NCBI GenBank assembly: GCA_038231275.1
Contig: JBBRLQ010000021.1
Coordinates: 1-64,000, forward strand
DNA from: Polyangiales bacterium
GTDB lineage: Bacteria > Myxococcota_A > Polyangia > Polyangiales > Polyangiaceae
Direction of reading: 5' to 3'
DNA length: 64,000 nucleotides
Under the pieces are notes generated by a model that did no database searches, was not told where the DNA came from, and was given only the letters and a program-made list of their open reading frames with translations. A program made the position numbers and the translations under genes. Each line of letters starts with the position of its first letter. Position 1 is the first letter of the stretch. Positions 4,586-22,335 of the stretch are shown one piece after another.

Positions 4586-4625
4586 AAAAAGGAGCTTGTC
4601 CACCGAGAGTGGACAAGCTCTTTTT
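4586..4625. terminator. Bidirectional intrinsic terminator after the tRNAs
   Basis: AAAAA-G-GAGCTTGTCCAC-CGAGA-GTGGACAAGCTC-TTTTT: a perfect 12-bp stem flanked by A and T tracts, between convergent transcription units. Confidence 0.9.
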
Positions 4626-4706
4626 GCTTTCGCACGCGTACTCGAGATCTTGTCCCTTCGTATCGCGCTCGCTCGGGGACCACGATGGCATCCCAACGTG
4701 ACCGCG

Positions 4707-6251: not shown

Positions 6252-6315
6252 CGCCTCGTGGGTCGTAGCACGATCGAGCGTCGACGAGGCGCGGCCACCC
6301 GCGGTCGCGCGTGGC

Positions 6316-6621: not shown

Positions 6622-6755
6622 GGGTGAAGAACCTCCGTGAGCGCGGGGTAGGTCGAAGTCGGCGTCGCGATCCAGCGCGCGCCGTGCTCACTCTCGTTGG
6701 GGCAACACGCGCTGCGGAGCGATCACTCCCGCTCGATGTTTTTTTGTGGACGGGG

Positions 6756-7118
6756 TCAGCGCGCGATCACGAGAAGGACCGTCGCGCACACCGCGATCGA
6801 CGCGCTCGCGACGATGACCTGCCACCCTCGGCGGACGTGCGAGCAACGCTCGGCCTTGTCGGCCACGGGCGTCGGCCCCGACTCCGTCAACCTCATCCCG
6901 CGCAGCGCCGTGAAGCCGCAGGTACGCGTCAGTCCCGCGTAGACACCGTACGTACCGAAGAAGAGCGGAAACGCGAGCACGCCGCGGTATGCGGCAGGTG
7001 CGCCGAGGCCGAGCAGGAGCACCGCGAGCGCCAGCGCCGCGGCGATCATCGTGACGCCGACGCGGAGCTGGAGGTTCTGCGCGTGCGCGTCCAGGTTCCC
7101 TAGCGCCTTCTCGCCCAT
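6756..7118 (-). CDS. Small membrane protein (3 hydrophobic segments; DUF2892/YgaP-like)
   Basis: Hydrophobic helices RVGVTMIAAALALAVLLL, VLAFPLFFGTYGVYAGLTRTC and VIVASASIAVCATVLLVIA. TATGTT lies 7 nt before ATG 7118. Confidence 0.6.
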   Translation of the reverse strand: MGEKALGNLDAHAQNLQLRVGVTMIAAALALAVLLLGLGAPAAYRGVLAFPLFFGTYGVYAGLTRTCGFTALRGMRLTESGPTPVADKAERCSHVRRGWQVIVASASIAVCATVLLVIAR

Positions 7119-7154
7119 GCCTGCAAACATAAGCCGTTCCGAGCGCGCCGCCAG

Positions 7155-7190
7155 TGGCAGCGTTTTCGCGGATTGGCACGAAAAACGCCA
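7155..7190. promoter_or_regulatory. Possible sigma54 -24/-12 element(s) in the divergent intergenic region
   Basis: Plus strand TGGCACGAAAAACGC (7174-7188, GG-N10-GC). The same DNA read on the minus strand gives TGGCGTTTTTCGTGC, also GG-N10-GC. Confidence 0.4.
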
Positions 7191-7240
7191 CCACGACGGA
7201 CGGGCGGTCATCGTACCCTCGGGCTGGGCGCGTTCCCGAC

Positions 7241-9994
7241 ATGATCAGGCTGCTCATCCGTTGGTTGGACTTACGCGAAGGAGAGGGGCGCGTCGTTGCG
7301 CAGGCCTTCGCCACGCTCTTCCTGATCATCGCCGGGCACACGACTCTCGAGACCGCACGCGACGCGCTGTTCCTGAGCAAACTGCCTCCTAGCCAGCTCA
7401 ACGTCGTCTACGTCGTGCTCGCTGCGGTGACGTTCTTCGTCAGCTCGGGCGCGACGCGCTTCGCCGCCGCCTTCGGACGCCGCAACGCGCTCCTCTGCTC
7501 GCTGGTCGTGGCGGCGTACGTCACGACGCTGCTCCATCACCTCGCGCCGACGCGATCGGTGGTCCTGGGGCTCTATGTCTTCAGCGGGCTCGTCGGCGCG
7601 GTGTTGTTGCCGCAGTTTTGGCTCCTCGCCGCGAAGCTCCTCACGGTCTCGCAAGGACGACGCCTGTTCGGTCCGATCGCGTCGGGCGGGGTGCTCGGCG
7701 GGGTCGCTGGAGCGACCACGGCCGCCGCGGTGGTCCACGCGTTTCCGGTCACGAGCCTCCTGCCCGTCGCCGCCAGCTTCTTCGTCGCCACCGCTGTCGT
7801 CCTCACCACGATCGCATCCGAGGAAACCACGCTCGCGGAGAGCGCCGGCCGCGCCAGCCCCGGCAAGAGCTGGGGCGAGCTCTTTCGCGAGAACCCGTTC
7901 CTGACGCGGATCGCGGCCATGGTCGCCCTGACGACGGCCAGCCTCCTCGTCGTCGACTACCTTTTCAAGTCGACCGCCGCGCGCGCGTTGCCCGCGGCGG
8001 AGCTCGGCTCGTTCTTCGCCAAGTACTACGCCGCGGTCAACGTCCTCTCCCTGGTCGTCCAGCTCTTCGTCGCGAGCCGCTTGATCCGGCGCCTCGGCGT
8101 CATCCCCTCGGTCGCCGTCATGCCGTTCCTGCTCGTGGGCGGCGGTGTCTTCACGTTCCTGGGCGGCGGGGCGCTCCTCGTGGTGCTGGCGCTCAAGTCG
8201 ATCGACGGCGGGATGCGGCACTCGCTGAACCGCGTCGCGTCGGAGCTCCTCTACTTGCCGCTGCCAGGCGAGGCGCGCGAGCGAGGGAAGACGCTCATCG
8301 ACGGCGTACTCTCCCGGATCGTTCAGGCGGCGATGGCGGGCGTGCTGCTCGTGCTCGCCGTGCGTGGGTTCGCGACGCCGCGGGTGCTCGCGGCGATTGT
8401 CGTGGGGCTGTCGCTCGCGTGGCTAGGGGTGACGATCAGCTTGCGCGGAACGTACTTGGATCTCTTCCGCCGCGTCCTTGCGCGCGATCCGCACGCCGCG
8501 GGTGGCAACGAGCTCGGCCTCGATGCCGCCGGCGCGCTCGTCGAGGCGATGGCGAGCGAGGATCCGGCGAAGGTGCTGGCGGCGATGGACATCCTCGCCG
8601 AGAACAAGCGCCAGAACCTGATCCCGGCGCTCATCCTCTACCACGACGCGCCGAAGGTCCTAGAGCACGCGCTCGGCGTGTTCGGCGAGGCGAAGCGCGA
8701 GGATTGGATTCCGCTCGCGGAGCGTCTGCTGTCGAACCCCGACGAGGACGTGCGTGTCGCCGCGGTGCGCGCGCTCGCAAAGCACGGGAGGGTGAGCGCC
8801 CTGAAGCGCGCCTCCGAGGACACGAGCTCTCGCGTGCAGGCGTATGCGGCGTTTCACTTGGCGCTGCAGACGGCGAAGGGGGATCTCCTCGAGCACCCGC
8901 TCATCGCCGCCATCCTGAAGGCGCCCGGCGAGTTCGGGCACCAGAGCCGCCTCGGCCTCCTCCGCGCCATCTCCGACACCGGGGAGCCGCGCGCGACCAG
9001 CGTTCTGCTCGAGCTCGCGAGGATGGAGATCGACGGCCCCGAGCTCGTGATCGAGCAGGTCGCTCAGGCGATGGCAAAGCTGAAGGACGAGCGCTTCGTC
9101 CCGCGCATGGTGCAGCGCCTCGGCCGGCGCGTGGGGCGCGAGGCGATTCGCGACGCGCTCGTCGCGATCGGGGAGCCGGCGCTGGACGAGCTCGAGCGCG
9201 TCCTCGTCGACTCCTCGTCACCGCGCCGGCTCCGGGCGCAGCTCCCACAGACCATCGCGCGCTTCGATTCGCAGCGGGCGTGCGATCTGCTGCAAAATGC
9301 GGTCATTGGCGATGCTGACGGCCTGGTTCGCTACAAGGCGCTACGCGGCCTCGGTCAGCTCGTCGCGAGGAACGAGGTCCGCGTCGATCGCGCCCGCATC
9401 GAGCGGGAGACGCGGAAGAACCTGGAGGACTACCTCCGCCTCTTCGCGCTCGACGTCGCGCTCACGTCGCACGACGGCGAGCGTGCGCTCGAGAAGACCG
9501 CGTCGGGGAAGCTGCTCGCCAGCTTGCTCGAGGACAAGATGGCGCAGGCGCTCGCCCGCGCTTTTCGGCTCCTCAAGATCGCCTACCGGCAAGAGGACAT
9601 CCACCGCGTGCACGCCGCGGCGCTCTCGTCGGACAAGCGCGCGCGCGCGAACGCCGGAGAGTTTCTCGACGCGCTGCTCGTGCGCCGCGACCAGCGCACA
9701 CTTCGCGTGCTGCTCCGCCTTTCACTCGAGGACGCGCCGGCGGCGCAGCGGATCGCCGAAGCCGAGGGGTTGGTGGGCGCCGCGCCGAAGGACGCGGACG
9801 CCGCGCTCGTCATGCTCGTCGAAGACCACGACACCGCGATCGCCGCGCTCGCCGCACACCACGCCATGTCGCTCGGCCGCCCCGAGCTCGAGGCCAAGAT
9901 CCAGCGCGCAAAGAGCTCCCGCCCCCTCATCGACGCCCTCGGCGAGCGCCTCTTCGGCGACGCGAGCGGTCCGCTGGAGGTGCAGGGTGTCTGA
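7241..9994 (+). CDS. NTT/Npt (ADP/ATP translocase-like) MFS transporter fused to HEAT repeats
   Basis: About 12 TM helices with ETARDALFL, QFWLLA...QGRRLFGPIASGGVLGG, VDYLFK and RHSLNRVASELLYLPLP motifs, followed by HEAT repeats (LLSNPDEDVRVAAVRAL, DADGLVRYKALRGL). Confidence 0.85.
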   Translation: MIRLLIRWLDLREGEGRVVAQAFATLFLIIAGHTTLETARDALFLSKLPPSQLNVVYVVLAAVTFFVSSGATRFAAAFGRRNALLCSLVVAAYVTTLLHHLAPTRSVVLGLYVFSGLVGAVLLPQFWLLAAKLLTVSQGRRLFGPIASGGVLGGVAGATTAAAVVHAFPVTSLLPVAASFFVATAVVLTTIASEETTLAESAGRASPGKSWGELFRENPFLTRIAAMVALTTASLLVVDYLFKSTAARALPAAELGSFFAKYYAAVNVLSLVVQLFVASRLIRRLGVIPSVAVMPFLLVGGGVFTFLGGGALLVVLALKSIDGGMRHSLNRVASELLYLPLPGEARERGKTLIDGVLSRIVQAAMAGVLLVLAVRGFATPRVLAAIVVGLSLAWLGVTISLRGTYLDLFRRVLARDPHAAGGNELGLDAAGALVEAMASEDPAKVLAAMDILAENKRQNLIPALILYHDAPKVLEHALGVFGEAKREDWIPLAERLLSNPDEDVRVAAVRALAKHGRVSALKRASEDTSSRVQAYAAFHLALQTAKGDLLEHPLIAAILKAPGEFGHQSRLGLLRAISDTGEPRATSVLLELARMEIDGPELVIEQVAQAMAKLKDERFVPRMVQRLGRRVGREAIRDALVAIGEPALDELERVLVDSSSPRRLRAQLPQTIARFDSQRACDLLQNAVIGDADGLVRYKALRGLGQLVARNEVRVDRARIERETRKNLEDYLRLFALDVALTSHDGERALEKTASGKLLASLLEDKMAQALARAFRLLKIAYRQEDIHRVHAAALSSDKRARANAGEFLDALLVRRDQRTLRVLLRLSLEDAPAAQRIAEAEGLVGAAPKDADAALVMLVEDHDTAIAALAAHHAMSLGRPELEAKIQRAKSSRPLIDALGERLFGDASGPLEVQGV

Positions 9995-10922
9995 CGTCTC
10001 GGAGACGGCGCGCATCAACCGCGAGGTCTTCCTGAAGACGATGGTGCCGCGCTCGCGCGGGACGCTCTGGGTCACGAGCCGCATGGCCGAGGCGATGGAG
10101 GACGTCGACGTACGCGCCGGTGGCGTGATCTTCGAGGCCGGCTCGTCCGCCGAGCACTACTACTTTGTCGTCGCCGGCGACGTCGAGATGACGCGTCCCG
10201 GCGCCAGGCCCTGGACGGTGACGGGGCCCGGCCTCGTCGGCGTGGTCGACGTGGCGCTGGGCCGCCCGCACCTTCGCGCCGCGGTCGCGAAGGGCGATGC
10301 GCGGCTGCTCCGCCTCGAGGTGGCGGTGTGGATGGACGCGCTCGAGGACAGCTTCGATCTCACGTACGCCGTGCTCCAAAACATGGCGCAGACGGTCTAC
10401 GGCTTGCGGATGCGGCCGCCGCCCAGTGGAGGCTTCGATGCCACGCCCGACGCGATGCGCTCGGCTTCGCTCCGCACGGTCGTCGATCGAATCCTCTTCA
10501 TGCGGGACGTCGCCCTCTTCGGGCACGCCGCTACCCAGGCGCTGACGACGCTCGCCGAGGCGACCGAGACGATGGAGCTGTCGCCGGGCGATGCGCTGTT
10601 CGGCAAGGGCGTCCACCCGGAGCGCATCTTCGTCGTCGCGTCGGGGGAGGTCGAGGCCGTGCACGACACTGCGCCGATCGTCGGGAAATTCCGCTGCGGA
10701 AGCGTCGTCGCCGGCCCCGCGGCGTTCGTGCGGCAGAACGGCGGCTTCTCTGCGCGCGCGACCGTCGCGACCACGGTCCTCGCGGTCGATCTCGACGACT
10801 ACTTCGACGTCATGGAAGAGCACTTCACGCTGGTCCGCTCGGCGATGATGTTCATGGCCTCGGACGTCGACGCGCTCCTCGAGCGCGACGCGACCCGCTC
10901 GCCGGGCCCAAACGTCCGGTGA
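9987..10922 (+). CDS. Tandem cyclic-nucleotide-binding-domain (Crp-like fold) protein
   Basis: Two domains: AGGVIFEAGSSAEHYYFVVAGDVEM and PGDALFGKGVHPERIFVVASGEVEA. GTG start overlaps the upstream gene, with GGAGG RBS at 9976-9980. Confidence 0.8.
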   Translation: MSDVSETARINREVFLKTMVPRSRGTLWVTSRMAEAMEDVDVRAGGVIFEAGSSAEHYYFVVAGDVEMTRPGARPWTVTGPGLVGVVDVALGRPHLRAAVAKGDARLLRLEVAVWMDALEDSFDLTYAVLQNMAQTVYGLRMRPPPSGGFDATPDAMRSASLRTVVDRILFMRDVALFGHAATQALTTLAEATETMELSPGDALFGKGVHPERIFVVASGEVEAVHDTAPIVGKFRCGSVVAGPAAFVRQNGGFSARATVATTVLAVDLDDYFDVMEEHFTLVRSAMMFMASDVDALLERDATRSPGPNVR

Positions 10923-11917: not shown

Positions 11918-12700
11918 CTACAAATCGTACGTGCCGCGGACGCCGAGGGTGACCCACTGGTGGTCATGCACCGGCGAGCGGTCGATGTTCCTTCCGTAGA
12001 CGACGCCGCTCTCGTGCCCGTTGGCGCCCATCGCCATGCCGACGAATGGCCCGAGCTTCGGCGCGCGCAGTCCGCTCCCGAGCGCGAAGTCTCCGCCGAG
12101 CTGCGCGTCGAAGAGCACGATCCCCGTTCGGGTGACGTGCGCGCCGCTGTCGCCCGACACGCCGCTCAGGTGAAGGATCTCGTAGCCGAGGCCTAGGCCA
12201 AACCAGGGGTCGAACGTGCGCAGCGGCGAGAAGTGGTACTGGAACGTCCCGCCGATCCGGTAGTCCTTCGCCGCGCACGTTCCGACCGCGTTCGCGCAGT
12301 CCGTCCGCGACGCGACCGCGAGCTGCCCGGTGAGCCCCAAGTAGACATGCGTGCTCGTCCGATAGCCGAGATCGAGCTGGATCGGCAGGAGGCTCGGCGT
12401 CTGGTAGGTGAGCGAGCTCGCAGACGACGCGTCGAGCGCGCGGACATATCCGGCGCGTAACCCGATCTGAAATCCCTTGATGACCGGATCATCGACCCGC
12501 GGTCCGAGCGGCGGCGCAGGCAGGTCGGGTGCGGCGCTCGCGGTCGTGCCGGCGACCGTGAGAGGGGCAGGCGAAGTCGTCGGCGCTGGCGCGGGCGCAG
12601 GGGTGGGCTCCGGCGTCGGCTCGGGGCCGGGGGCTACGTCTTGCGCGAGGGCGGTCCCGGGCAACGACAAGAGGAGGGCGGAGAGGACGAGGAAGCGCAT
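11918..12700 (-). CDS. Outer-membrane beta-barrel protein (8-stranded OmpA/OmpW-like)
   Basis: Signal peptide ending ALA-Q, Pro-rich linker, alternating beta strands (FQIGLRAGY, QLDLGYR, GTFQYHF, PWFGLGLGYE), C-terminal beta-signal LGVRGTYDL. GGAGG RBS. Confidence 0.8.
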   Translation of the reverse strand: MRFLVLSALLLSLPGTALAQDVAPGPEPTPEPTPAPAPAPTTSPAPLTVAGTTASAAPDLPAPPLGPRVDDPVIKGFQIGLRAGYVRALDASSASSLTYQTPSLLPIQLDLGYRTSTHVYLGLTGQLAVASRTDCANAVGTCAAKDYRIGGTFQYHFSPLRTFDPWFGLGLGYEILHLSGVSGDSGAHVTRTGIVLFDAQLGGDFALGSGLRAPKLGPFVGMAMGANGHESGVVYGRNIDRSPVHDHQWVTLGVRGTYDL

Positions 12701-12711
12701 GGCCTCCCTTC

Positions 12712-12727
12712 AGCAGGGCCCGTACCA
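12712..12727 (-). promoter_or_regulatory. Possible sigma54 promoter of the beta-barrel gene
   Basis: Minus strand TGGTACGGGCCCTGCT has GG-N10-GC spacing, immediately upstream of the RBS. Confidence 0.4.
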
Positions 12728-12816
12728 AGCGCTTCCGCGCGAAATTGCGGGGGTTCCGCCACCTGCCCGCGCGCCGTTGTGTGCCAGCGCGGCGCGACCG
12801 TCAGGCTCGCAAGCTC

Positions 12817-12975
12817 TCAGAGCGCCTTCATCAACGGAATTTCGTGCCCCTTCGGACAGCGCGCCGCCATCTTCTCGTCGGCGTCCTTCACCGAGAGCTT
12901 TACCTTTGCGCCGCACTCCGGGCACTGGACCTCGACCGTCTCGTCGCCCTTCTTGCCGCCATTCTCATGGACCAT
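12817..12975 (-). CDS. 52-aa zinc-ribbon microprotein (not in the ORF track)
   Basis: Translates as MVHENGGKKGDETVEVQCPECGAKVKLSVKDADEKMAARCPKGHEIPLMKAL with CPEC...CPKGH. Typical GC3-rich codons, AGGA upstream. Confidence 0.75.
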   Translation of the reverse strand: MVHENGGKKGDETVEVQCPECGAKVKLSVKDADEKMAARCPKGHEIPLMKAL

Positions 12976-13082
12976 CCGTCATCCTGGGGGCCGCCGTCGC
13001 CGCTTTGCAAGGGGAGGTCGAGCGGGGGCCGAGGGAGCGTGGCAAAAACGCGCATGATGGTGGCACCTTACCGACTAAGAGC

Positions 13083-13111
13083 TTCTAGCGTGGGGCGTCC
13101 AGGCGTATAAC
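13083..13111 (+). promoter_or_regulatory. Probable sigma70-type promoter of the carrier-protein operon
   Basis: TTCTAG-17 bp-TATAAC, followed by AGAGGG RBS before ATG 13137. Confidence 0.45.
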
Positions 13112-13136
13112 CAGGGACTCGCAAAAGAGGGCTTCC

Positions 13137-13385
13137 ATGACGGATCCGACCATCGAGGAGAAGGTGCGCGCCATCATCGTGCGCATCGCGAAGATCGAAG
13201 CTGGCTTCAGCCCGGACGCGGACATCTTCCGCGAGCTCGGCGTCAAATCGGCCGCAGCGCTCGATCTCCTCCTCTCGCTCGAAGAAGAGTTCAACATCGC
13301 GATCAGCGACGACGCGTTCGGCGACGCGCGCACCGTGAAGAAGATCGTCGAGCTCGTGGCGAGCCTGCAGGGAGCGGCGGCGTGA
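13137..13385 (+). CDS. Acyl/aminoacyl carrier protein
   Basis: 82 aa, acidic, DADIFRELGVKSAAALDLLLSLEEEFNIAI with Ser retained at the phosphopantetheine position. Its stop overlaps the next start (GTGA). Confidence 0.9.
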   Translation: MTDPTIEEKVRAIIVRIAKIEAGFSPDADIFRELGVKSAAALDLLLSLEEEFNIAISDDAFGDARTVKKIVELVASLQGAAA

Positions 13386-14584
13386 GCGGGCCCACCTGGG
13401 AGGCGGTCGACCTCAAGAAGCAGGTCGACGGCGATCTCGCCGCGGACATCGAGAAGCAGGGCGCCTACGTGTCCCCTGAGATCTTGCGCGTCAAGGTCGA
13501 GGGCGGCCAGGTCCGCTTCGAGGTGAAGGCCGGCGCCAACGTCGCCGACACCAAGGCGAAGGTCGATCGCTACGTCGATCTCATGGTCGCGAAGTTCCGC
13601 AAGATCCCGCGCAAAGTGCTGCACACGCGCGAGCGGAAGAACAAGGCGCCCCTCCGCACCGGCGTCTACGAGGAGCTGAAGAAGCGCGGCTGGGTGAGGG
13701 AGCTCGGTCGCGGCCAGGTCGCCCTCACCGGCCCCGCGCTCAACGTCCTCCGCACCGTCGACGCCGACTGCCGCGCGATGGGCATGACCCAGTTCGGCGC
13801 GAAGGAGGAGAGCTACCCGACCCTCATCCCGTCCAAGACCCTCGGGCGCTGCGGCTACTTCTCGAGCTTCCCGCAGACGGTCTCGATGGTCACGCACCTC
13901 GTCGAGGACTTCGACACCATCGAGCACTTCCGCCAGGCCAACGCCGAGACGACCGACCTCATCGTCCCCGACGCGCGCGCTTTCGCGACGCCGGAGGCCT
14001 GCCTCTCGCCGGCAGTTTGTTACCACTGCTACCGCGGCCTCGAGGGGACCAACCTGAAGGGCGGCCCCAACGTCGTCACCACCGTCGGAAAGTGCTTCCG
14101 CTACGAGTCGACGAACATCACGGGCCTCGATCGCCTGTGGGACTTCACGATGCGCGAGGTCATCCTCGTGGGCACCGAAGAAGAGGTCTCGACGCGGCGC
14201 GAGAAGGGCATCGAGCTCGTGAAGGCGCAGATCGAAAAATTCGATCTCCAGGCCGAGATCGAGAGCGCGAACGATCCGTTCTTCAGCGCGGCCTACGCGA
14301 CGAAGACCTACGCGCAGCTGCGCGGCGATCTGAAGTTCGAACTGCGGCTCTCCGTCGAGCCGGGACCGAACGGCGAAGCGCGCTCGCTCGCGTGCGGCAG
14401 CTTCAACCTGCACGACAACTTCTTCGGCCGCACCTTCACGATCAACGCGCAGAACGGCGAGCCGGCCTTCACCGGCTGCATCGCGTGGGGCCTCGAGCGT
14501 TGGGTGCTCGCGTGCTTCACGCAGCACGGCTTCGAGGCGAGCGGGTGGCCCGAGGCCATCCGCGCCAGCGTCTGGGGAACATGA
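13382..14584 (+). CDS. Class II aaRS homologue (atypical SerRS-like), probable amino acid:[carrier protein] ligase
   Basis: GYFSSFPQ, LSPAVCYHCY, motif 2 GKCFRYE...RLWDFTMREVILVG, ANDPFF, KFEL, ACGSFNLHDNFFG, motif 3 GCIAWGLERW. Candidate Cys/Glu/Cys Zn ligands. Coupled to the carrier-protein gene. Confidence 0.88.
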   Translation: MSGPTWEAVDLKKQVDGDLAADIEKQGAYVSPEILRVKVEGGQVRFEVKAGANVADTKAKVDRYVDLMVAKFRKIPRKVLHTRERKNKAPLRTGVYEELKKRGWVRELGRGQVALTGPALNVLRTVDADCRAMGMTQFGAKEESYPTLIPSKTLGRCGYFSSFPQTVSMVTHLVEDFDTIEHFRQANAETTDLIVPDARAFATPEACLSPAVCYHCYRGLEGTNLKGGPNVVTTVGKCFRYESTNITGLDRLWDFTMREVILVGTEEEVSTRREKGIELVKAQIEKFDLQAEIESANDPFFSAAYATKTYAQLRGDLKFELRLSVEPGPNGEARSLACGSFNLHDNFFGRTFTINAQNGEPAFTGCIAWGLERWVLACFTQHGFEASGWPEAIRASVWGT

Positions 14585-15282
14585 AAGCCCTGGACCAAAT
14601 CATCCTGAAGGTGAAGCGCCGCGAGACCCCCGCGGCGCAGATGGCCTACCGCGCGTACCGCACCCTCATCGAGTTCGACATCCCCGACAACCAGGCGATG
14701 AAGATGCTCTACGGGTCGCTCTACGTCGGCCACCACATCTACGTCGACGCGCGCGAGTGGATGCTGTCGAAGTTCATGTACGCGCCGATGCTGCGCGCGC
14801 GTTGCGAGTACGCGGGGAGCGGCCTCAACGTCACCGCGCCGCCGTACGTTCGCGGCCACGCACGCATTTCGATCGGCTCGAACTGCACGTTCTCCACGTT
14901 CTCGCTGCACACCGGGCGCTTTGTCGATCGGCCGGAGATCTCCTTCGGCGACGGATGCTTCGTCGCGGGCCAGGTTCAGTTCACGCTGAACAAGAAGATC
15001 ACGATCGGCAACCACGTCCTCATCGCCGGCCGCGCCGACATTCAGGACTCCGACGGCCACCCGTCGGATCCGTCGCGCCGCATGCGTGGCGAGGACATGG
15101 ACGAGACGGACATCGCGCCCGTCACCATTCAGGACTACGCGTGGATCGGTCGGGATGCGCACGTGCTCAAGGGGGTCACCATCGGACGGGGCGCGGTCGT
15201 CGCTGCCGGCTCGGTCGTCGTGACCGACGTGCCGGAGGGGGCGATCGCGATGGGCGTCCCCGCCCGTATCCTCAAGCGCTGA
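14581..15282 (+). CDS. Left-handed beta-helix (hexapeptide repeat) acyltransferase, copy 1
   Basis: ITIGNHVLIAGRADIQDSDGHP...PVTIQDYAWIGRDAHVLKGVTIGRGAVVAAGSVVVTDVP...GVPAR. ATGA overlap with the ligase stop. Confidence 0.9.
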   Translation: MKALDQIILKVKRRETPAAQMAYRAYRTLIEFDIPDNQAMKMLYGSLYVGHHIYVDAREWMLSKFMYAPMLRARCEYAGSGLNVTAPPYVRGHARISIGSNCTFSTFSLHTGRFVDRPEISFGDGCFVAGQVQFTLNKKITIGNHVLIAGRADIQDSDGHPSDPSRRMRGEDMDETDIAPVTIQDYAWIGRDAHVLKGVTIGRGAVVAAGSVVVTDVPEGAIAMGVPARILKR

Positions 15283-15283
15283 G

Positions 15284-16036
15284 ATGAACCCGTTCGACCG
15301 CGCCTTGCTTCACGCCAAGCGAGGGGACTCGCCGGCGGCAAGGCTCGCGCGTCACGCGTACCATCGCCTCCTCGCGTGGGATTTGCCAGAGACGGAGGCA
15401 CTGAAGGTGCTTTACGGCACCGCGTTCCAGCTCGACTACCTCGCGACCGACGCGAAAGAGTGGGCTCTCTCGAAGCTCTTCTACTCGCCGATGGTCCGCT
15501 CGCGATGCGACAGCGTCGGCAAGGGACTCAACGTGACTGCGCCGCCGTACGTTCGCGGCAACGTACGCATCCACATCGGCAACTTCTGTAATTTTTCGAG
15601 CTTCGACATCCGCACCGGGAAATTTCCGAAGGATCCGGTGCTCACGTTCGGCGACGACGTGTGGGTCGGCTCGAAGGTCCTCATCATGCTCACCAAGAGC
15701 ATCACGATCGGCAGCCACGTCCTCATCGCCGGCCGCACGGACATCCAGGACGCCGACGGCCACCCGTCCGAGAGCGATCGCCGCGAGCGCTTCGAGCAGA
15801 TGGCCGAGGAGGACAGTAAATCCGTCATCATCCACGACTACGCGTGGCTCGGCCGCGACGTGCACGTGCTGAAGGGCGTCACGATCGGCCGCGGCGCGGT
15901 GGTGGCGGCCGGCTCGGTCGTCGCGGCGGACGTGCCCGATCATGCGCTGGCGATGGGCGTCCCCGCGCGCGTGGTGAAGGTGAGCCCTCCACCGGAGGCA
16001 GACATCCCTCCGTACTCGCGGCCCTACACGCGGTAG
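15284..16036 (+). CDS. Left-handed beta-helix (hexapeptide repeat) acyltransferase, copy 2
   Basis: ITIGSHVLIAGRTDIQDADGHP...DYAWLGRDVHVLKGVTIGRGAVVAAGSVVAADVP...GVPAR. Starts 1 nt after the stop of copy 1. Confidence 0.9.
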   Translation: MNPFDRALLHAKRGDSPAARLARHAYHRLLAWDLPETEALKVLYGTAFQLDYLATDAKEWALSKLFYSPMVRSRCDSVGKGLNVTAPPYVRGNVRIHIGNFCNFSSFDIRTGKFPKDPVLTFGDDVWVGSKVLIMLTKSITIGSHVLIAGRTDIQDADGHPSESDRRERFEQMAEEDSKSVIIHDYAWLGRDVHVLKGVTIGRGAVVAAGSVVAADVPDHALAMGVPARVVKVSPPPEADIPPYSRPYTR

Positions 16037-16083
16037 GCGGCGGCGCGCTGCTCCTCACGGCTTCCACGGGTTCATTGGCCCCA

Positions 16084-16136
16084 GAGTCGGAGTCGGAGTC
16101 GGAGTCGGAGTCGGGGTCCGGGTCGGGTCCGGGTCG
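16084..16136. repeat. Intergenic hexamer microsatellite
   Basis: (GAGTCG)x5 at 16084-16113 followed by GGGTCC/GGGTCG variants. Confidence 0.85.
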
Positions 16137-16239
16137 GCGTCGGAAAAATAGCGCGGAATCTTCGATAGATGGCCCCCACGAAAATCCTCTGTCACAGTTG
16201 GATCGCCTCCCGCGACGATCGGGTGTGTACGCCCTCAAG

Positions 16240-17178
16240 ATGCCCGCCGAAGCCCACGCACTGACCGATCCCCGTTTTCGTCGCGCGCTCACCCAGATGG
16301 TGCGCCGCCGCGTGCCCGAGAGCGAGGCGGAGGACATCGTGCAGTCGTCGCTCGCCGAGGCGCTCGCGTCCGAGCGCGCCCCGGCCGAGATGGATTCGTT
16401 GCGGCGGTTCGTGTGGGGGATTGCTCGCCACAAAGTCGCCGATTTCTACCGCCGCGCCCGTCGCGAGCGGCTCGACGTGCCGGAGATGGAAGGCGAGGGC
16501 GCGCCGCACAGCGAGCACGACCTGTTGCGCTGGGCCGCGCGCGAGCTTCCGGACGGCAAGGACGCGGAGCAGACGCTCCAGTGGATGCTCCGCGAAGGGG
16601 AAGGGGAGAAGCTCGAGGCGATCGCCGAGGCCGAGAACGTCCCCGCGCCGCGCGTGCGCCAGCGCGTGAGCCGTCTGCGCAAGCACCTGCGCGAGCGATG
16701 GGCGATCGAGATCGCGGCGCTCGCGGCGATCGGCGTCGTCGTGGCGCTCATCGTGTGGGAGATGAACCGTCAGCCCGGCAAGCCGATCACCAATGAGCCG
16801 GCGCTCCACGAAGAGCCCAAGCTGAAAGCGCCGGAGCCCCCGAAGTCGATGCCAGGGACCACCGACGTACCGAACGATTCGGCCAACCCGCTGCAGGTGG
16901 CGCCGCCGGTCCCCTCGAGCGTGCCAACGACCTCGCTCACGCCGGGGCCCACGATCGATCCGACGGCAGCCCCGCGGCCCACCGCGCCGCCGTCGAGCGG
17001 CACGCCGTCGATCCCGGCGCCGCCCGCAAAGAGCAAGTCGAGCGGCAAGCCGGCCCCGATGGGGAAGACGTCGTCCGTCTTCGACTCGGACGGGACCCCC
17101 TCGCCCGCGCCGGACGTGAAGTCCGACGCCGAGACGAAGAAGCTGATGGAGCGCAGCCTCGGCGGGTCGAAGAAGTAG
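16240..17178 (+). CDS. ECF-type RNA polymerase sigma factor fused to a TM helix and Pro-rich tail
   Basis: Region 2 EAEDIVQSSL...FVWGIARHKVADFYRR, region 4 EGEKLEAIAEAENVPAPRVRQRVSRLRKHL, then IAALAAIGVVVALIVW and a P/S/T-rich tail. Confidence 0.8.
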   Translation: MPAEAHALTDPRFRRALTQMVRRRVPESEAEDIVQSSLAEALASERAPAEMDSLRRFVWGIARHKVADFYRRARRERLDVPEMEGEGAPHSEHDLLRWAARELPDGKDAEQTLQWMLREGEGEKLEAIAEAENVPAPRVRQRVSRLRKHLRERWAIEIAALAAIGVVVALIVWEMNRQPGKPITNEPALHEEPKLKAPEPPKSMPGTTDVPNDSANPLQVAPPVPSSVPTTSLTPGPTIDPTAAPRPTAPPSSGTPSIPAPPAKSKSSGKPAPMGKTSSVFDSDGTPSPAPDVKSDAETKKLMERSLGGSKK

Positions 17179-17181
17179 CCG

Positions 17182-17778
17182 CTACTTCTGCTGCGGGCGC
17201 GTCGACGTGTCGCCGGGGGCGAGGTTCTCGAAGGAGAGAGTGCGCCCGCTCTCGAGACGCACGCGCCAGAGCGGCACGATCTGGATGCCAGCCTTGCCGA
17301 GCGAGCGCGTCGCACCTTCGAGCTGGTGCTTGACGAAGAAGCTCGCCTCCCACTTCATCCCCATCGCCTTTAGCGCGTGCAGCTCCACCAAGAACCCCAC
17401 GCGCCGCAGGCCGCCGCCGCGCAGCTCGGGAGGTGTCCAGGCGTCGTAGCCGTAGCCGACATCGGGCGCGGTCTCGAACGTGCAGCCAGGGAGGTACGGG
17501 TAGTCGATCGTGCGGCGCGAATGAAGCCACGTGTACGAGACGACGCGTTCTCCGTCGAGGCCGAGGACCCAATACTCACCGCGCGCCAGGCGCGTGCGCA
17601 GATCTTCGACGTGCTCGGCGTTGTGATGCTCCACCGGCAACCGCGCGAGATCGGCCTCGGTTCCCTGCACCCACCGCACGCGCTTTGCCTCGGGGGAGGC
17701 GTTGGGATCATCGAGAGGAACGTCGGTCGAGCATTTGCAGACGTAGACCTCGCGCGCCAGAACGATCACGCGGAACAT
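17182..17778 (-). CDS. GNAT-fold acyltransferase-like protein
   Basis: RLARGEYWVLGLDGERVVSYTW...GYGYDAWTPPELRGGGL (CoA-binding motif A). Start uncertain (17778 or 17808). Confidence 0.7.
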   Translation of the reverse strand: MFRVIVLAREVYVCKCSTDVPLDDPNASPEAKRVRWVQGTEADLARLPVEHHNAEHVEDLRTRLARGEYWVLGLDGERVVSYTWLHSRRTIDYPYLPGCTFETAPDVGYGYDAWTPPELRGGGLRRVGFLVELHALKAMGMKWEASFFVKHQLEGATRSLGKAGIQIVPLWRVRLESGRTLSFENLAPGDTSTRPQQK

Positions 17779-17830: not shown

Positions 17831-19300
17831 TTGGGCAGTGCCGTTCGGGGTGCCGCATGGACGATCCTCACTGGGATCGGATCCCGCATCGTCGGCCTCT
17901 TCGGAACGCTCTGGCTCACCTACTACCTGGCGCCTGAAGTCCAAGGCGAGGTGTCGGACGCGTTCATCGTCGTCCTGACGGCGCATCAGCTCTCCACGCT
18001 CGGGGTGCAGCAGTACCTCGTGGCCGGACCCGAGCCCGAGAAGGGGCTGGCGTGGCACGTGACGGTGTTCCAGTTCGTCCTCGGGCTCGTCGCGTTCGGC
18101 GCAGTGATCCTCCTGCGCGATCAGTTCGGCGGGTTCCTCCACGCGCCGACCATGGGTCAGTACGTGCCAGGCCTCGCGCTCGCGATGTTCATCGAGCGCC
18201 TTGGCACGGTCCCCGAGCGCTTGCTCTCGCGCCAGATGAAGTTCCGCACGATCGGGCTTGGCCGAACGCTCGGGGAGATGGCCTACACCGTCGTGAGCGT
18301 CGTGCTCGCGTGGCGGGGCTTCGGCGGCATGGCGATCGTGTACGGCAACATCGTCCGCACCATCCTCTACTTCGGAGTGCTCGCGCGCGCGACGCCTCGG
18401 GCCGCGTGGATCTCCCCGAAGACGCCGCTCTCCCTCGACGCGCTGCGGCCGGCGCTCCGCTATGGGCTGCCGCTGTGGGTCGGCGCGTTCGCGACGTTCG
18501 TGTCGCGGCGCTGGGACAACCTGATCATCTCGGCGCTCTTCGGCGCGCACGTCGTGGGCGAGTACAACCTCGCGTACAACCTCGCGGACATTCCGGCCAC
18601 GCAGGTCGGCGAGCAAATCGGCGACGTGCTCTTCCCCAGCTTCGCGCGGATGGAGCCCGAAGATCGCAAGCGCGCGCTCGTCCGGTCGACGGGCCTCTTG
18701 TCGCTCGTCGTGTTCCCACTCGCGGTCGGCCTCGGCGCCGTCGCGCCGACGGTCGTGCACGTCATGCTGCGTCCCGAGTGGTACGGCGTCGCGCCGATGC
18801 TCGTCATCCTGTCGGCGCTCAGCGTGACACGCCCGGTCGGGTGGACGATCCAAGCGTACCTCCAGGCGTCGCACCGGCCGCGCGCGTCCATGTGGCTCGG
18901 GCTCGCGAAGATCGCGTTTCTCATGACGGCGATGGTGGTGTTAGGAAAGCTCACCGGGCAGCCTCTGTGGGCGTGCGGGGCGGTGGGGCTCGCCTTCGGG
19001 CTGCACTCGCTCGCGAGCATGTTCGTCGTCTCGCGCGACGACGCGGTCAGCGTCTGGACGCTCCTCGGTCGCTGCGCGCCGCCGCTCCTCGCCACGTTGC
19101 CGATGGCCGCGGCGATCTACGGCGTGCGCGTCGCGATGGAGCGGACCGGTGGGGTCCCTCCGATCGCCGGCCTCGCGATCGAGCTCGTGACAGGCGGCGT
19201 CGCGTACATCGTGAGCGCGCTCGTCCTGGCGCGCACGACGGCGCGCGACTTCACGACCCTCGTGCGCGACGCGATCCAGCGGCGACGCGGGAAGGCGTAG
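17831..19300 (+). CDS. Wzx/PST-family oligosaccharide flippase (polysaccharide biosynthesis protein)
   Basis: AVRGAAWT start, LLSRQMKFRTI, RWDNLIISALFGAHVVGEYNLAYNLA, VLFPSFAR, about 12-14 hydrophobic helices. Confidence 0.9.
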   Translation: MGSAVRGAAWTILTGIGSRIVGLFGTLWLTYYLAPEVQGEVSDAFIVVLTAHQLSTLGVQQYLVAGPEPEKGLAWHVTVFQFVLGLVAFGAVILLRDQFGGFLHAPTMGQYVPGLALAMFIERLGTVPERLLSRQMKFRTIGLGRTLGEMAYTVVSVVLAWRGFGGMAIVYGNIVRTILYFGVLARATPRAAWISPKTPLSLDALRPALRYGLPLWVGAFATFVSRRWDNLIISALFGAHVVGEYNLAYNLADIPATQVGEQIGDVLFPSFARMEPEDRKRALVRSTGLLSLVVFPLAVGLGAVAPTVVHVMLRPEWYGVAPMLVILSALSVTRPVGWTIQAYLQASHRPRASMWLGLAKIAFLMTAMVVLGKLTGQPLWACGAVGLAFGLHSLASMFVVSRDDAVSVWTLLGRCAPPLLATLPMAAAIYGVRVAMERTGGVPPIAGLAIELVTGGVAYIVSALVLARTTARDFTTLVRDAIQRRRGKA

Positions 19301-20165
19301 CCTCCGAGGTGGAGCGCCCGCCGATCGCGCGGAAGGCCCGCTCGGCCTCAGGCAAGCCGATCGCGACGAGGCCTGGCACCACGTCCTCGCGCATGCCGTC
19401 CCAGAACGCGCGCGCGTAGCCGGCGTCGGTCAGCGTGCCGAAGTTGGGAGAATCGACGCCGCTTCGTGCTTCGGGTCGCGCGCGCGCCCAGGCCTCGCCG
19501 TGCGCCGCGCCGCACATGTCGCGGTAGTGCGCGAAGACCTCGACGAGCTGGCGCGCGAGGACGTCGCGTTCACGCCGGCACGCGGCGGTCCCGTCGTCGC
19601 GCATGAGGAGCGCCCCGAGCTCCCACCCGAGGCGCCCGTGGAAGGTCTCGTCGTCCACGATCGCACGGACCGCGTCCTTCGCGACGGGCACGGTGGCGAC
19701 GCGAAGGCACCTTCGGAACATGAGGCCGCTTAGCGTCTCGCCGATGCAGAACGCGGCGATGACGGTCCCGCGCACATGGGCACGCAACGTCCGCGCGGTC
19801 ACCGGGAGATGAAGCGCGCCGGGATCGACGTCCGCCGCATCGCCGCCGCAGAGCTCCGTCATGCGGAGCGCGATGTCGGTGTGGCGAACCTCGTCGGCGA
19901 TCATGCGTGCGAAGGCCCCCGCCCAGTCGAGCGGCGCGACGAGCACGTGGAGCTGCGACGACAGCTGCGTGAAGAGCGCGAGCGAATGGAATTCCTGCGC
20001 CGCCCGCGCATGCCACGCCTCCGCTGCCGCGGACAGCTGCGCCTTCGAGTAGTCCTCGCGCGCGAGCTCCCACCGGATCGTTCCGCGGCGCGGCGCGGCG
20101 ATCTTCGCGTGCTCGGCGGCGAGCTCGAGATCGCCCGCGTCGGTCGCGCGCCGGAGCCGTACCAT
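19251..20165 (-). CDS. Ferritin-like di-iron domain protein
   Basis: QEFHS...DEVRH...GETLS...DDETFH pattern (E, ExxH, E, ExxH). The 3' end overlaps the convergent flippase by 50 bp. Confidence 0.8.
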   Translation of the reverse strand: MVRLRRATDAGDLELAAEHAKIAAPRRGTIRWELAREDYSKAQLSAAAEAWHARAAQEFHSLALFTQLSSQLHVLVAPLDWAGAFARMIADEVRHTDIALRMTELCGGDAADVDPGALHLPVTARTLRAHVRGTVIAAFCIGETLSGLMFRRCLRVATVPVAKDAVRAIVDDETFHGRLGWELGALLMRDDGTAACRRERDVLARQLVEVFAHYRDMCGAAHGEAWARARPEARSGVDSPNFGTLTDAGYARAFWDGMREDVVPGLVAIGLPEAERAFRAIGGRSTSEATPSRVAAGSRRARGS

Positions 20166-20482: not shown

Positions 20483-21424
20483 CTACCAGCGGTCCTCGTC
20501 GACGCCGCGCACCGTCTCCTCGACGCTCATCTGCGGGGAAAATTCCAGGTCCTGCCGCGCGCGCGCGTCGTCGACCATGCAGACGTAGCGGATGTGATCG
20601 AGCTCCGGCGCCGGGAAGGTGGTGAGGCGCAGGGACCACATCCTCCGGACGAGCATCTTGCCGATCGTGTACGGCACCGGCAGGCTGGCGCGGCCGAGCA
20701 TCTTGATCGCGCGAGAGAGCGGGAGCGGCTCGGGACCCGCGACGTTGTAGATGCCGCGCTTGGACGGCGCGAGCGCCCGCCGGATCGCGCCGACGACGTC
20801 CGACTCGTGGATGACCTGGACCATCGGGTCGAACCCCATGAGCGTCGGCACCGTCGGCAAGCGCAAGAAATTCGACGGCGCGTTCCGCACGGTGCCGAGG
20901 ATGTGCACCGGCCGGAGGATGACCGTCTCGGTCTGCGGGTGCTTCCAGAAGAAGCCCTGCGCCAGCATGTCGACCTCGATGAGATCGCGGATTTCGCTGA
21001 ACCGCGCACCCCCCAGCAGCGGCGCGTCCTCGGTCAGGAACTGCGCATTACCGGCCTGCGGCCCGTAGACGTTTGCGCTCGAGAGGACGACGAGCTTCGG
21101 CACCTTGAACTGCGCGACGTACTCGAGCAGCTTCGCGAAGCCGGCGACGTTCCACTCGTGGTGCTCGGACGCCGACGCCCGCGGATCGTGCATGACGCCG
21201 AGGTGCACGACCGCCTGCACGTCGCCGTGGCGGAATACGTCCTTCAGCTTCTTCCGGCGGATGTCGACCTGCTCGTGGTCGACGTCCTTCGGTTTGTCGG
21301 GGAAGGGGCGTCGGTCGACGCCGATGACCTTGCGCTCGCGGTGCAGCACGCGCGCCAGGCGCTTGCCGAGCCTGCCGCAGATCCCGGTGATGACGACCGC
21401 GCCCGCCCCTTCCATCGCGCTCAC
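20483..21424 (-). CDS. NAD-dependent epimerase/dehydratase (extended SDR)
   Basis: VVITGICGRLG Rossmann motif, VVHLG, VLSSANVYG, ILRPVHILG, GIYNVAG. GTGA overlap with the upstream acyltransferase. Confidence 0.88.
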   Translation of the reverse strand: MSAMEGAGAVVITGICGRLGKRLARVLHRERKVIGVDRRPFPDKPKDVDHEQVDIRRKKLKDVFRHGDVQAVVHLGVMHDPRASASEHHEWNVAGFAKLLEYVAQFKVPKLVVLSSANVYGPQAGNAQFLTEDAPLLGGARFSEIRDLIEVDMLAQGFFWKHPQTETVILRPVHILGTVRNAPSNFLRLPTVPTLMGFDPMVQVIHESDVVGAIRRALAPSKRGIYNVAGPEPLPLSRAIKMLGRASLPVPYTIGKMLVRRMWSLRLTTFPAPELDHIRYVCMVDDARARQDLEFSPQMSVEETVRGVDEDRW

Positions 21425-22335
21425 CAGAACACGTGCTTGCGGTCCTTGACGCCGCGGTTGAGCATCGACTGAATCATCGATTTGACGACCCACACCTTCT
21501 CTTCCATGACGGCGTCGTCATCGTCGGGGTCGCCGTCGAAGGTCATCGGCTCGCCGAAGTAGATGCGGTACTTGGTGGGGAGGGGGAGCTGGCCGCCGGG
21601 GAGGAGTAGCTGCGGGATCACCGGAAACGATGGCATGCGGAGGAGCTTCGCCAACGTCTCCACGTTCGCGACGCTCACGTACTGCTCCTCACCGCCGACG
21701 ACGGCGACCGGCACGATCGGCGTCCCAGTCTCGATCGCGAGGCGCATGAAGCCGAGGCCGAAGTCGGTGAGCTGGTAGCGGCGATCGAACGTCTTGCTGA
21801 TGCCGCGCGCGCCTTCCGGGAAGACGAGGAGCGCCTCACCTTGCTCGAGCAAGCGCTGCGCGTTCTCGGGGACGCCGACGACCTGGCCCACACGCGCGAA
21901 CAGCATGGACACGAAGGGGAGCGTCTGCGTCCACTTCTCCACCATCGCGCGGACGAAGCGCGGAGGCTCGACGTCCATGAAGAGCGCGGCGCCGATGAGC
22001 GCGCCGTCGATCGGAACCTGGCCCGAGTGGTTGGCGATGAGGAGCACGCGCCCGGTGGGGATGTTGGCGGCGCCGTAGACCTCGGTGCGGAAATAGCGGC
22101 GGTGAAGGAACGCCGCGGATGCGAGGGCCCACTTCGTCCACTGCGGGTCGAGACCGAAGGGGTCGGTCCCTTGCGTCGTGAGCGCGAGCGGGACGCGCTC
22201 GAGGCGGCGGTTGAAGTCCTCGCCGAGCAGCCCCGTCATCCACCCGTCGACCGCGCCGCCGGCGGTGCCGAGCAGGCCCTTCGCCAGGGCACGCGCGCCG
22301 CGCGCGAACGATCCAATGCGGGCGAGGTTCGACAC
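21421..22335 (-). CDS. Lysophospholipid/1-acyl-sn-glycerol-3-phosphate acyltransferase family protein (PlsC-like)
   Basis: DPFGLDP, IANHSGQVPIDG (HxxxxD), VFPEGARG, PIVPVAVVG. Start trimmed to GTG 22335. Confidence 0.88.
   Translation of the reverse strand: MSNLARIGSFARGARALAKGLLGTAGGAVDGWMTGLLGEDFNRRLERVPLALTTQGTDPFGLDPQWTKWALASAAFLHRRYFRTEVYGAANIPTGRVLLIANHSGQVPIDGALIGAALFMDVEPPRFVRAMVEKWTQTLPFVSMLFARVGQVVGVPENAQRLLEQGEALLVFPEGARGISKTFDRRYQLTDFGLGFMRLAIETGTPIVPVAVVGGEEQYVSVANVETLAKLLRMPSFPVIPQLLLPGGQLPLPTKYRIYFGEPMTFDGDPDDDDAVMEEKVWVVKSMIQSMLNRGVKDRKHVFW

Follow-up and report, generated by a model that had tools for sequence, protein, structure and literature searches.

A carrier protein, a seryl-tRNA synthetase-like ligase and two LbH acyltransferases encoded together in a Polyangiales genome: a candidate tRNA-independent route to glycan aminoacylation

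The subject of this study is a cassette of four genes found in a 64,000-nucleotide stretch of DNA from a Polyangiales bacterium (contig JBBRLQ010000021.1 of assembly GCA_038231275.1; the whole stretch is hereafter called the window), which encodes a small carrier protein, a ligase related to seryl-tRNA synthetase (SerRS) and two acyltransferases of the left-handed β-helix (LbH) fold, LbH1 and LbH2. The view that this cassette is a tRNA-independent module for the aminoacylation of a glycan is well supported, because the identity of the ligase, the co-occurrence of the carrier, natural protein fusions and glycan-related neighbours all point to it. The more complete proposal, in which the glycan belongs to the cell envelope and the LbH pair are most likely the transferases, is put forward here with about even confidence. 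In fact, ligase and carrier are joined to acyltransferases by gene overlap, by gene order and by fusion, and they occur in settings of glycan synthesis or export in several phyla. From these associations we infer that the carrier-bound amino acid ends on a sugar, and that in this lineage the LbH proteins transfer it.

The operon, its ligase and its carrier

The preliminary description of this DNA had noted four tightly coupled genes at 13137-16036, and its observation was confirmed, while its interpretation was supported in part. Read from the sequence, the carrier and ligase genes overlap in a GTGA at 13382-13385, the ligase and LbH1 genes overlap in an ATGA at 14581-14584, and the stop codon of LbH1 (TGA, 15280-15282) is followed after 1 base by the ATG of LbH2 at 15284. 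Twenty homologues have N-termini that support ATG 14581 as the start of LbH1, and that of the ligase at 13382 is likewise supported by homologue N-termini. A purine-rich AAAGAGGG lies 6-13 nt upstream of the first ATG, that of the carrier gene. The GC content at third codon positions is 0.88-0.94 for the carrier, ligase and LbH2 genes (LbH1 was not listed separately), and GC content per 2-kb bin across the window is about 66-76%. The single promoter that had been proposed for the operon remains an assumption, as a scan of 12600-16400 for sigma-70 consensus sites returned 0 sites where 0.3 were expected, a result that says little for a myxobacterium. Only two tRNA genes were found in the window, at 4357-4585, none of them near the cassette. 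The earlier remark that no gene for a nonribosomal peptide synthetase (NRPS) or an acyl-CoA dehydrogenase adjoins the cassette holds across the 18 open reading frames (ORFs) scanned between window positions 42 and 34153.

Judged from its sequence, the ligase is a divergent, SerRS-derived class II relative of the amino acid:[carrier protein] ligases (aa:CP ligases). In Pfam, residues 206-379 match tRNA-synt_2b (PF00587) at 5.5e-6 and 27 bits, below the cut-off of 29.3. The kinship with aa:CP ligases that had been claimed from motifs was borne out by the NCBIfam model for amino acid--[acyl-carrier-protein] ligase (NF005479, 163.4 bits, E 6e-48) and by the best solved match, the Bll0957 structure 3mey (E 2.6e-34 over residues 138-394), after which a type-2 SerRS is the next solved match (3w3s, E 1e-26). 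The catalytic core of class II aminoacyl-tRNA synthetases (aaRSs) is present with motifs 2 and 3. The named motifs also proved real in an 18-sequence alignment, where C213 (AVCY), C366 (GCI/TGC), R240/E242 (RYES, motif 2) and R373 (GLERW, motif 3) are invariant in the ligase subfamily and E259 (MRE) is retained in at least 90% of it. C213, E259 and C366 match the Cys/Glu/Cys site of methanogen-type SerRS and align with the C, E and C of Bll0957, which we take to be zinc ligands.

The ligase belongs to a large family, with 2548 proteins at E up to 1e-5, of which the top 120 share 48-100% identity with the window protein and are nearly all about 390-415 aa long. The N-terminal region of the family is conserved and strongly basic, with a pI of 9.85 over 135 residues. 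This extension of about 110-135 aa, in an alignment running from SerRS residue 146 onward, is present in the window ligase and is absent from Bll0957 by chain length and alignment start; for that reason the protein was filed as a separate, N-extended subfamily of aa:CP ligases and not as an equivalog.

The carrier matches PF00550 (PP-binding) at 3.7e-11 and, weakly, the DltC model NF003464 (3.3e-5), and it is acidic (pI 4.46). Across 22 carriers adjoining related ligases, Ser38 and E49 are the sole invariant residues, and Ser38 is the predicted phosphopantetheine site. Its invariance in 22 of 22 carriers agrees with the earlier proposal that the carrier is dedicated to the ligase.

The LbH family, natural fusions and related loci

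Both acyltransferases match Hexapep in Pfam (LbH1 1.5e-11, LbH2 1.7e-9), and in NCBIfam both find the WbbJ, WcaF, LacA and MAT models best, all far under the curated cut-offs (for LbH1 the best is WbbJ, with 81.5 bits against a cut-off of 243 and E 5e-23). A profile made from the 21-member LbH family matches the structures of VCA0836, LacA, NeuO and MAT at 7e-22 to 1e-17. Within the LbH1 motif DSDGHP, residues D156, D158, H160 and P161 are invariant among the 21 sequences, and its GHP aligns with the GHP of LacA, whose His presumably acts as a catalytic-loop residue. LbH2 is a paralogue of LbH1 (57% identity), with the same N-terminal extension and the motif DADGHP. This extension, which comprises residues 1-74 of LbH1 and about 75-85 aa in the family, is predicted to form three helices and is basic (pI 9.3-9.4), with K12, R13, R72 and R74 invariant. 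When it was searched alone against 1.84 billion representatives, 28 proteins were found at E up to 0.001; 27 of these are short (at most 262 aa) and are matched mostly at or near the N-terminus, whereas the last, of 1958 aa, is matched weakly and internally (23% identity). In the AlphaFold2 (AF2) model of LbH1, short strands begin at residue 89; its Foldseek matches are generic LbH proteins with low TM-scores, owing to its poor C-terminus, and are uninformative about the donor. The prediction of an LbH1 trimer in complex with the carrier reached a score of 0.04 against a mark of 0.32, which counts neither for nor against such a complex. The acidic carrier and the basic LbH extensions may complement each other in charge, which is weak evidence for the mechanism proposed below.

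A search for natural fusions, restricted to longer proteins, recovered single chains with the order LbH-carrier-ligase-GNAT. There are five cluster representatives of 1080-1179 aa (P0269-P0273), in which Hexapep lies near 177-210, PP-binding at about 253-352, the ligase core at about 552-746 and GNAT at about 791-966. One of them, P0273, comes from Chondromyces crocatus, on a contig of 11,388,132 bases, and bears in NCBI only the name 'GNAT family N-acetyltransferase'. The fused LbH parts can be aligned over their full length with the LbH family of the window and keep the motif as DSNGHP, and BLASTP of LbH1 against P0273 gave 35% identity at E 8e-35. Ligase-GNAT fusions that lack LbH were also found (P0274 from C. 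apiculatus and P0275; 743-756 aa). Additionally, P0276 (Paenibacillus sp., 738 aa) is a BtrH_N domain fused to a ligase homologue of 34% identity, which links the ligase to a family of ACP-to-aminosugar transacylases. A 638-aa protein with ligase and Hexapep matches (P0022) was rejected as a fusion, since it reads as a frameshifted run-through of adjacent genes, and it calls for caution with metagenome 'fusions' taken at face value.

A profile search of genome contigs with the ligase alignment yielded 217 relatives in 276 pattern matches, of which the best 80 (L001-L080) were compared; within these, the nearest relatives of the window are metagenome-assembled genomes (MAGs) of Myxococcota. The probes used on all 80 loci were the window proteins together with family representatives that Pfam had identified. 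One Pfam scan, of L001-L025, covered 150 of 161 candidate ORFs, the 11 omitted being known carrier or LbH genes or antisense ORFs, and a further scan took in 52 ORFs out of 126 candidates, the 52 coming from 10 of the 19 loci sampled. It was verified that a carrier gene lies at most 4 kb from the ligase in 76 of the 80 loci, 73 times directly upstream of it and 3 times downstream; the loci lacking one in this range are L017 and L020, whose contigs both stop at the ligase, together with L024 and L037. In 11 loci (L001, L002, L003, L005, L008, L013, L015, L018, L020, L021 and L023) the ligase gene is succeeded, after a gap of 9-68 nt and in the same orientation, by a full-length, N-extended LbH gene, and L007 is a twelfth, whose contig ends 192 nt into such an ORF. 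These 12 loci all come from Myxococcota MAGs and rank among the best 25 matches. The co-occurrence in other genomes that the preliminary description had set as a condition for its cassette is thus borne out in part, since carrier, ligase and LbH recur together; within the 80 loci, the form with two LbH copies is confined to L001 and L002, which share 93-94% ligase identity with the window. Contigs of the same size appear in the ligase and LbH match tables in 18 cases, which is suggestive only.

Where these loci have LbH, others pair the carrier and ligase with different thioester-using types of acyltransferase. In six of them (L016, L019, L022, L025, L030 and L048; from Kofleriaceae, Labilithrix, with L022 from Labilithrix luteola, a Bradyrhizobium MAG and a Dongiaceae MAG), an MBOAT protein and a protein of about 400 aa with weak GDSL/DUF1574 (SGNH-like) similarity adjoin them, in a layout like that of Dlt or of alginate acetylation in which the aaRS-derived ligase replaces DltA. 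Among the Chloroflexota loci, an AAC(3)-like gene is present in 47 and a GNAT gene in 45. A conserved operon in the Anaerolineales runs Capsule_synth, methyltransferase, carrier, ligase, GNAT, AAC(3)-like Antibiotic_NAT and a DUF4910/DUF2172 M28-like gene (for example L033:3087-9750 and L043:1989-10725, within the range L026-L080), and in L043 NeuB, a cytidylyltransferase (CTP_transf_3) and a GT2 gene stand alongside it; this operon looks like one for the aminoacyl decoration of a nonulosonic acid or a capsule. With the probes used, no acyltransferase was found in 12 of the 80 loci; Pfam identified a PlsC-type enzyme 3' of the ligase in L017, and L007 and L055 end at contig ends.

Genes of polysaccharide assembly are recurrent neighbours. 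Bac_transf and GT4 genes lie directly upstream in 7 loci, Wzx, Wza and Wzy_C are found among the neighbours as well, and in the clade of L009-L012 and L014 the order is Bac_transf, GT4, carrier and ligase, then Wzx, Wza and Wzy. An Acetyltransf_6 (FemAB-like) gene lies downstream in 6 of the LbH loci. Upstream and on the minus strand, genes for a STAS-domain protein and an anti-sigma-type HATPase_c_2 kinase were found, the STAS protein in L003, L007, L009, L011 and L014, while L008 has the kinase alone; in these six loci the genes are divergent from the Bac_transf-GT4-carrier-ligase operon, which hints at partner-switching control of the cluster. Two loci have other surroundings: in L002, the second-closest relative, genes for a LanC-like protein and a LanB-type lantibiotic dehydratase follow right after the four-gene cassette (3711-8189; absent in the window and L001), and in L037, from Kitasatospora sp. 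GAS204B, the ligase stands amid two acyl-CoA dehydrogenases, a 3-hydroxyacyl-CoA dehydrogenase, a phosphopantetheinyl transferase (PPTase) and an NRPS C-A-T module (278-10643), a setting of secondary metabolism.

A maximum-likelihood tree was built from 73 ligases, partial sequences being omitted (L017, L020, L039, L048, L066, L069, L071 and L080). The window ligase groups with L001 and L002 (100/97) and then with L006 (99/99), inside a 22-row clade (99/97) that holds 11 LbH-type, 8 'none' and 3 MBOAT-type rows, and the Chloroflexota ligases form a separate clade of 47 rows. On this tree the LbH label requires about 6 changes, at least 3 of them forced, and therefore the LbH partnership is clustered yet does not form a single clean clade. 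The ligase of L004, a locus titled 'uncultured Enterobacteriaceae bacterium', groups with Polyangia (98 support, with L003 and L005), the DNA has 66% GC, and the MAG label is probably a binning error.

The remaining features of the window that bear on the cassette are given with it in Table 1.

Table 1. Genes of the cassette and of its surroundings in the window
Feature	Position	Strand	Remarks
Carrier protein gene	13137..13385	+	82 aa, ATG start
SerRS-like ligase gene	13382..14584	+	400 aa, GTG start
LbH acyltransferase 1 gene	14581..15282	+	233 aa, ATG 14581, within ORF 14017-15282
LbH acyltransferase 2 gene	15284..16036	+	250 aa, ATG start
Sigma70_r2 protein	16180..17175	+	between LbH2 and GNAT
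GNAT-fold acyltransferase	17182..17778	-	ORF to 17919 (198-245 aa); family-supported start near 17778
Wzx-type (MOP family) flippase	17831..19300	+	Polysacc_synt_3 1e-42
NAD-dependent epimerase/dehydratase-family protein	20483..21493	-	PF01370 7.4e-17

The GNAT-fold protein found no match in Pfam, and its AF2 model (mean predicted local distance difference test score, pLDDT, 90.7) resembles VipF (Foldseek E 8e-7), the GlcN N-acetyltransferase 5kf1 (1.2e-5) and the aminoacyl-tRNA-dependent peptide synthase 9wqw (3.4e-5). Homologues of it (E 1e-63 to 1e-118) occur in 7 of the 80 loci, on the opposite strand right after the LbH gene in L003, L013, L015, L018, L020 and L023 and farther downstream in L001, and it likely belongs to the pathway of the cassette. 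A profile comparison of the window GNAT with the Chloroflexota GNAT gave a probability of 6.8%, at which kinship beyond the shared fold is not demonstrable. Homologues of the Wzx flippase were found in 10 of the 80 loci (for example L023 4e-150, L018 5e-146, L013 1e-142 and L011 8e-129), and those of the epimerase occupy the same relative place in L013, L018 and L023 (4e-159 to 8e-166). In these three loci the order is deacetylase, carrier, ligase, LbH, GNAT (-), deacetylase, Acetyltransf_6, Wzx and epimerase (-). Neither deacetylases nor Acetyltransf_6 were found in the window and L001 with the probes used; instead of them, both carry the second LbH and the Sigma70_r2 protein. Since only L001 among the 80 loci has a homologue of the latter (E 6e-161), it looks like a lineage-specific insertion. 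A 'polysaccharide deacetylase' in L001 was rejected as an artefact, its query having begun inside an antisense frame of the GNAT gene. No MBOAT protein was found in the window at E below 1e-4.

Just 3' of LbH2, at 16084-16144, there is a hexanucleotide tandem repeat (GAGTCG x 10.3), which falls inside the ORF 15844-17178 and would encode ESESES...GSGS upstream of the Sigma70_r2 part. Beyond Wzx, the minus-strand ORF 19251-20165 (304 aa) has neither a Pfam match nor a homologue in the 80 loci, and a feature search in the Atlas gave hypothetical clusters of Myxococcota with ferritin-like, AurF and acyl-ACP-desaturase leads (0.92-0.96). Two very long ORFs, 39554-46903 (+, 2449 aa) and 23346-28706 (-, 1786 aa), have TPR-type Pfam matches only.

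Proposed function and its rivals

In the mechanism proposed here, which for its first steps follows the homology with Bll0957-type enzymes, the zinc-dependent ligase would activate a small amino acid with ATP (Gly, Ala and Ser being the precedents) and would then thioesterify it to the phosphopantetheine on Ser38 of the carrier. Gene coupling, the order in relatives and the natural fusions suggest that co-encoded acyltransferases consume the aminoacyl-S-carrier. The N-extended LbH pair, with His160 as the putative general base, would most likely move the aminoacyl group to a sugar hydroxyl or amine of a cytoplasmic lipid-linked or nucleotide-linked intermediate, and the two paralogues could serve two acceptor positions or two acceptors. 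An ester linkage is suggested by the fact that the nearest LbH relatives are O-acetyltransferases; the deacetylases of the sister loci would instead fit the re-acylation of a freed amine. The GNAT may then acetylate the free alpha-amine to give an N-acetyl-aminoacyl substituent, and the neighbouring Wzx flippase, conserved across loci, would export the modified unit. Amino-acyl and N-acetyl-amino-acyl substituents of Gly, Ala, Ser and allo-Thr, among them N-acetyl-Gly and N-acetyl-Ser, are documented on E. coli O antigens (PMC7685785). Conserved neighbours of the types Wzx, sugar transferase, GT4, deacetylase and capsule synthesis fit a glycan target, so this part of what the preliminary description had suggested for the LbH pair finds support, and the aminoacyl-carrier stays a putative donor of the LbH enzymes.

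Several points weigh against the LbH proteins as aminoacyl transferases or against parts of the scheme. Their nearest solved relatives (VCA0836, LacA, NeuO and MAT) are all acetyl-CoA O-acetyltransferases. The carrier-dependent enzymes LpxA and LpxD appear to be only weak matches of the LbH proteins (NF002060 at 28.6 bits against a cut-off of 207; 4ihg at a Foldseek E of 0.038), and both were absent among the 60 of 84 PDB profile matches listed for the LbH family. The LbH1 model is of moderate quality (pLDDT 78, C-terminus below 50). Contact or transfer between carrier and LbH appears in no result, and the role of the carrier as LbH donor is plausible but unproven. In the well-supported sister clade L009-L012 and L014, carrier and ligase have no adjacent acyltransferase detectable by the probes used, and because 12 of the 80 loci show none, an adjacent transferase is not obligatory. 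No glycosyltransferase or initiating transferase was found in the window scans. Moreover, the score of the ligase is far under the NF005479 equivalog cut-off (163 versus 357 bits). Finally, most clades have a GNAT along with the system, and P0274 and P0275 join one to the ligase with LbH absent, so that the GNAT could be the true transferase.

That last point defines the main rival, in which ligase and carrier do feed glycan aminoacylation but the window GNAT, or the FemAB-like Acetyltransf_6 of relatives, carries out the transfer, and the LbH pair are ordinary acetyl-CoA O-acetyltransferases of the same glycan, merely co-located as tailoring genes. As a candidate transferase, the GNAT, which the preliminary description had overlooked, is equally good: besides the acetyl-CoA dependence of the LbH relatives, it can be cited that a GNAT gene lies directly 3' of the ligase in 45 loci, that the window GNAT family is kept in 7 LbH-type loci, that the structures similar to its model include sugar N-acetyltransferases and aminoacyl-tRNA-dependent peptide synthases, and that Acetyltransf_6 lies downstream in 6 LbH loci. 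However, it is the LbH1 gene that overlaps the ligase gene, the GNAT being 1.1 kb off on the other strand; L002, L005, L008 and L021 have carrier, ligase and LbH with no match to the window GNAT within the compared stretch; the Chondromyces fusion places LbH directly beside the carrier domain; and the N-extension is confined to this LbH family (the 28 representatives at E up to 0.001). Taken as a whole, this rival is considered rather unlikely, and it keeps the glycan as the target. In another, clearly less probable scheme, the LbH enzymes would tailor the carrier-bound amino acid, either by O-acetylating seryl-S-carrier as CysE does serine or by N-acylation, and a different enzyme would off-load it. 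The serine O-acetyltransferases EpsC (1.2e-12) and CysE (7.5e-9) are indeed among the LbH matches, the ligase is of SerRS descent, the four-domain fusion fits tailoring as well as it fits transfer, and N-acylated aminoacyl substituents of glycans, structures of which are listed in PMC7685785, require two acyl transfers. On the other hand, the LbH proteins match sugar O-acetyltransferases best (WbbJ, 5e-23) and not CysE. We also know of no precedent for an LbH protein acting on a carrier-bound amino acid.

That the cassette serves a product outside glycans, be it a small secondary metabolite or an extender unit of an unusual kind (for example aminomalonyl-carrier), is very improbable. The L037 surroundings, the LanC and LanB genes of L002 and the pairing of an acyl-CoA dehydrogenase-like region with the ligase in P0277 would agree with it, but the branch of L037 is very long and falls outside the clade of the window, no NRPS, polyketide synthase or acyl-CoA dehydrogenase was found near the window cassette, and what is conserved around the cassette in that clade is Wzx, GNAT, epimerase, deacetylases and glycosyltransferases. 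The least probable reading, which we give hardly any credence, is that the 400-aa protein is a working SerRS paralogue with unrelated neighbours. Most ligase homologues are annotated 'seryl-tRNA synthetase' in JGI, and the methanogen-type SerRS models match at 112-142 bits; these scores are nonetheless far below the cut-offs of 490 and 611 bits (NF002120 gave 142 against 611). The alignment to the SerRS profile spans positions 161-505 of 518, from query residue 57, and because it begins only at position 161 the first ~160 positions, which form the N-terminal (tRNA-binding) domain, are missing. Furthermore, a carrier is adjacent in 76 of the 80 loci, and carrier domains are fused to the ligase.

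The proposal preferred here can be stated in its general form, to which we assign slightly less than even confidence: the LbH proteins would be a new family that takes an aminoacyl-S-carrier charged by an aaRS-type ligase as donor for a myxobacterial surface glycan, and the SerRS-like aa:CP ligases would be a shared engine of several phyla with an interchangeable transferase (LbH, MBOAT with SGNH, GNAT with AAC(3), or BtrH). If true, the role of these ligases, which a 2022 review still calls unknown (PMC9437257), would be settled. It would also define a new donor type for LbH acyltransferases, a tRNA-free route by which Gly, Ala and Ser substituents reach some bacterial glycans, and a modular swapping of transferases across Myxococcota, Pseudomonadota, Chloroflexota and Bacillota. 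The cassette additionally offers a compact test system: it encodes four small soluble proteins, a cultured relative has the natural fusion, and the setting of glycan export is conserved.

Comparison with known systems

The closest known enzymes are the aa:CP ligases of the Bll0957 and Atu2573 type, reportedly the subject of work by Mocibob et al. in 2010 and 2013, and their loading of carrier proteins is said to have been shown in 2010. The window ligase shares with them the SerRS-derived class II core, the aligned Cys/Glu/Cys positions, the absence of a tRNA-binding domain and a small carrier gene next to it. It differs in length, with 400 aa against the 346-residue chains of the solved enzyme, and in its neighbours, which are LbH, GNAT and Wzx, whereas the Atu2574-type ORF and the redox enzyme described for the founding members were not seen in the window. 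The general idea that these ligases serve the aminoacylation of cell-surface sugars is not new: a note added in proof in 2010 inferred from the neighbourhoods of the founding members that the amino acid is ligated to an amino group of a cell-surface sugar, and it predicted an Atu2574-type ORF as the ligase (PMC2922099). No experimental follow-up and no experimentally defined acceptor were found in the open-access literature, and no published description turned up of the LbH partner, the four-domain fusion or the interchange of transferases between clades. For the tetronate genes rfbK-O of Vibrio cholerae, considered as a precedent for an acyl carrier protein (ACP) with LbH, a literature search gave nothing.

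In the biosynthesis of butirosin, the BtrI/BtrH step moves a carrier-bound amino-acyl group to an amino sugar, BtrH being papain-like and its acceptor an aminoglycoside. The window differs in that its candidate transferase is an LbH protein and that BtrH is absent. PMC2922099 describes the BtrH family as an ACP transacylase. The resemblance to envelope systems is broader. Dlt D-alanylation follows a carrier-based logic of ligase and transferase like that of AlmEFG, and DltA and AlmE are ANL adenylating enzymes. AlmEFG is responsible for the glycine modification of Vibrio cholerae lipid A (PMC4278540). As in both systems, the phosphopantetheine of a small carrier would be loaded with the amino acid by a ligase, for an acyltransferase to pass it on to an envelope glycolipid or polymer. 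Unlike in them, the window ligase is a class II aaRS homologue and not a member of the ANL superfamily, and the candidate transferase is a soluble LbH protein and not MBOAT (DltB) or AlmG-type; Dlt-like MBOAT versions of the ligase system were found in the six related loci, none of them in the window.

With LacA, MAT, NeuO and WbbJ, which provide its best sequence matches, the LbH family shares the LbH domain and the GHP His. It differs from them in the three-helix basic N-extension, which was found only in the window family, and in that it always adjoins or is fused with carrier and ligase in the loci seen. LpxA and LpxD are LbH enzymes that use an ACP-bound acyl donor and acylate the OH or NH2 of a sugar. 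Their donor is a fatty acyl group, whereas an aminoacyl group is proposed here, and the similarity is only weak; nevertheless, they provide the precedent for an LbH trimer that accepts a carrier thioester to acylate a sugar.

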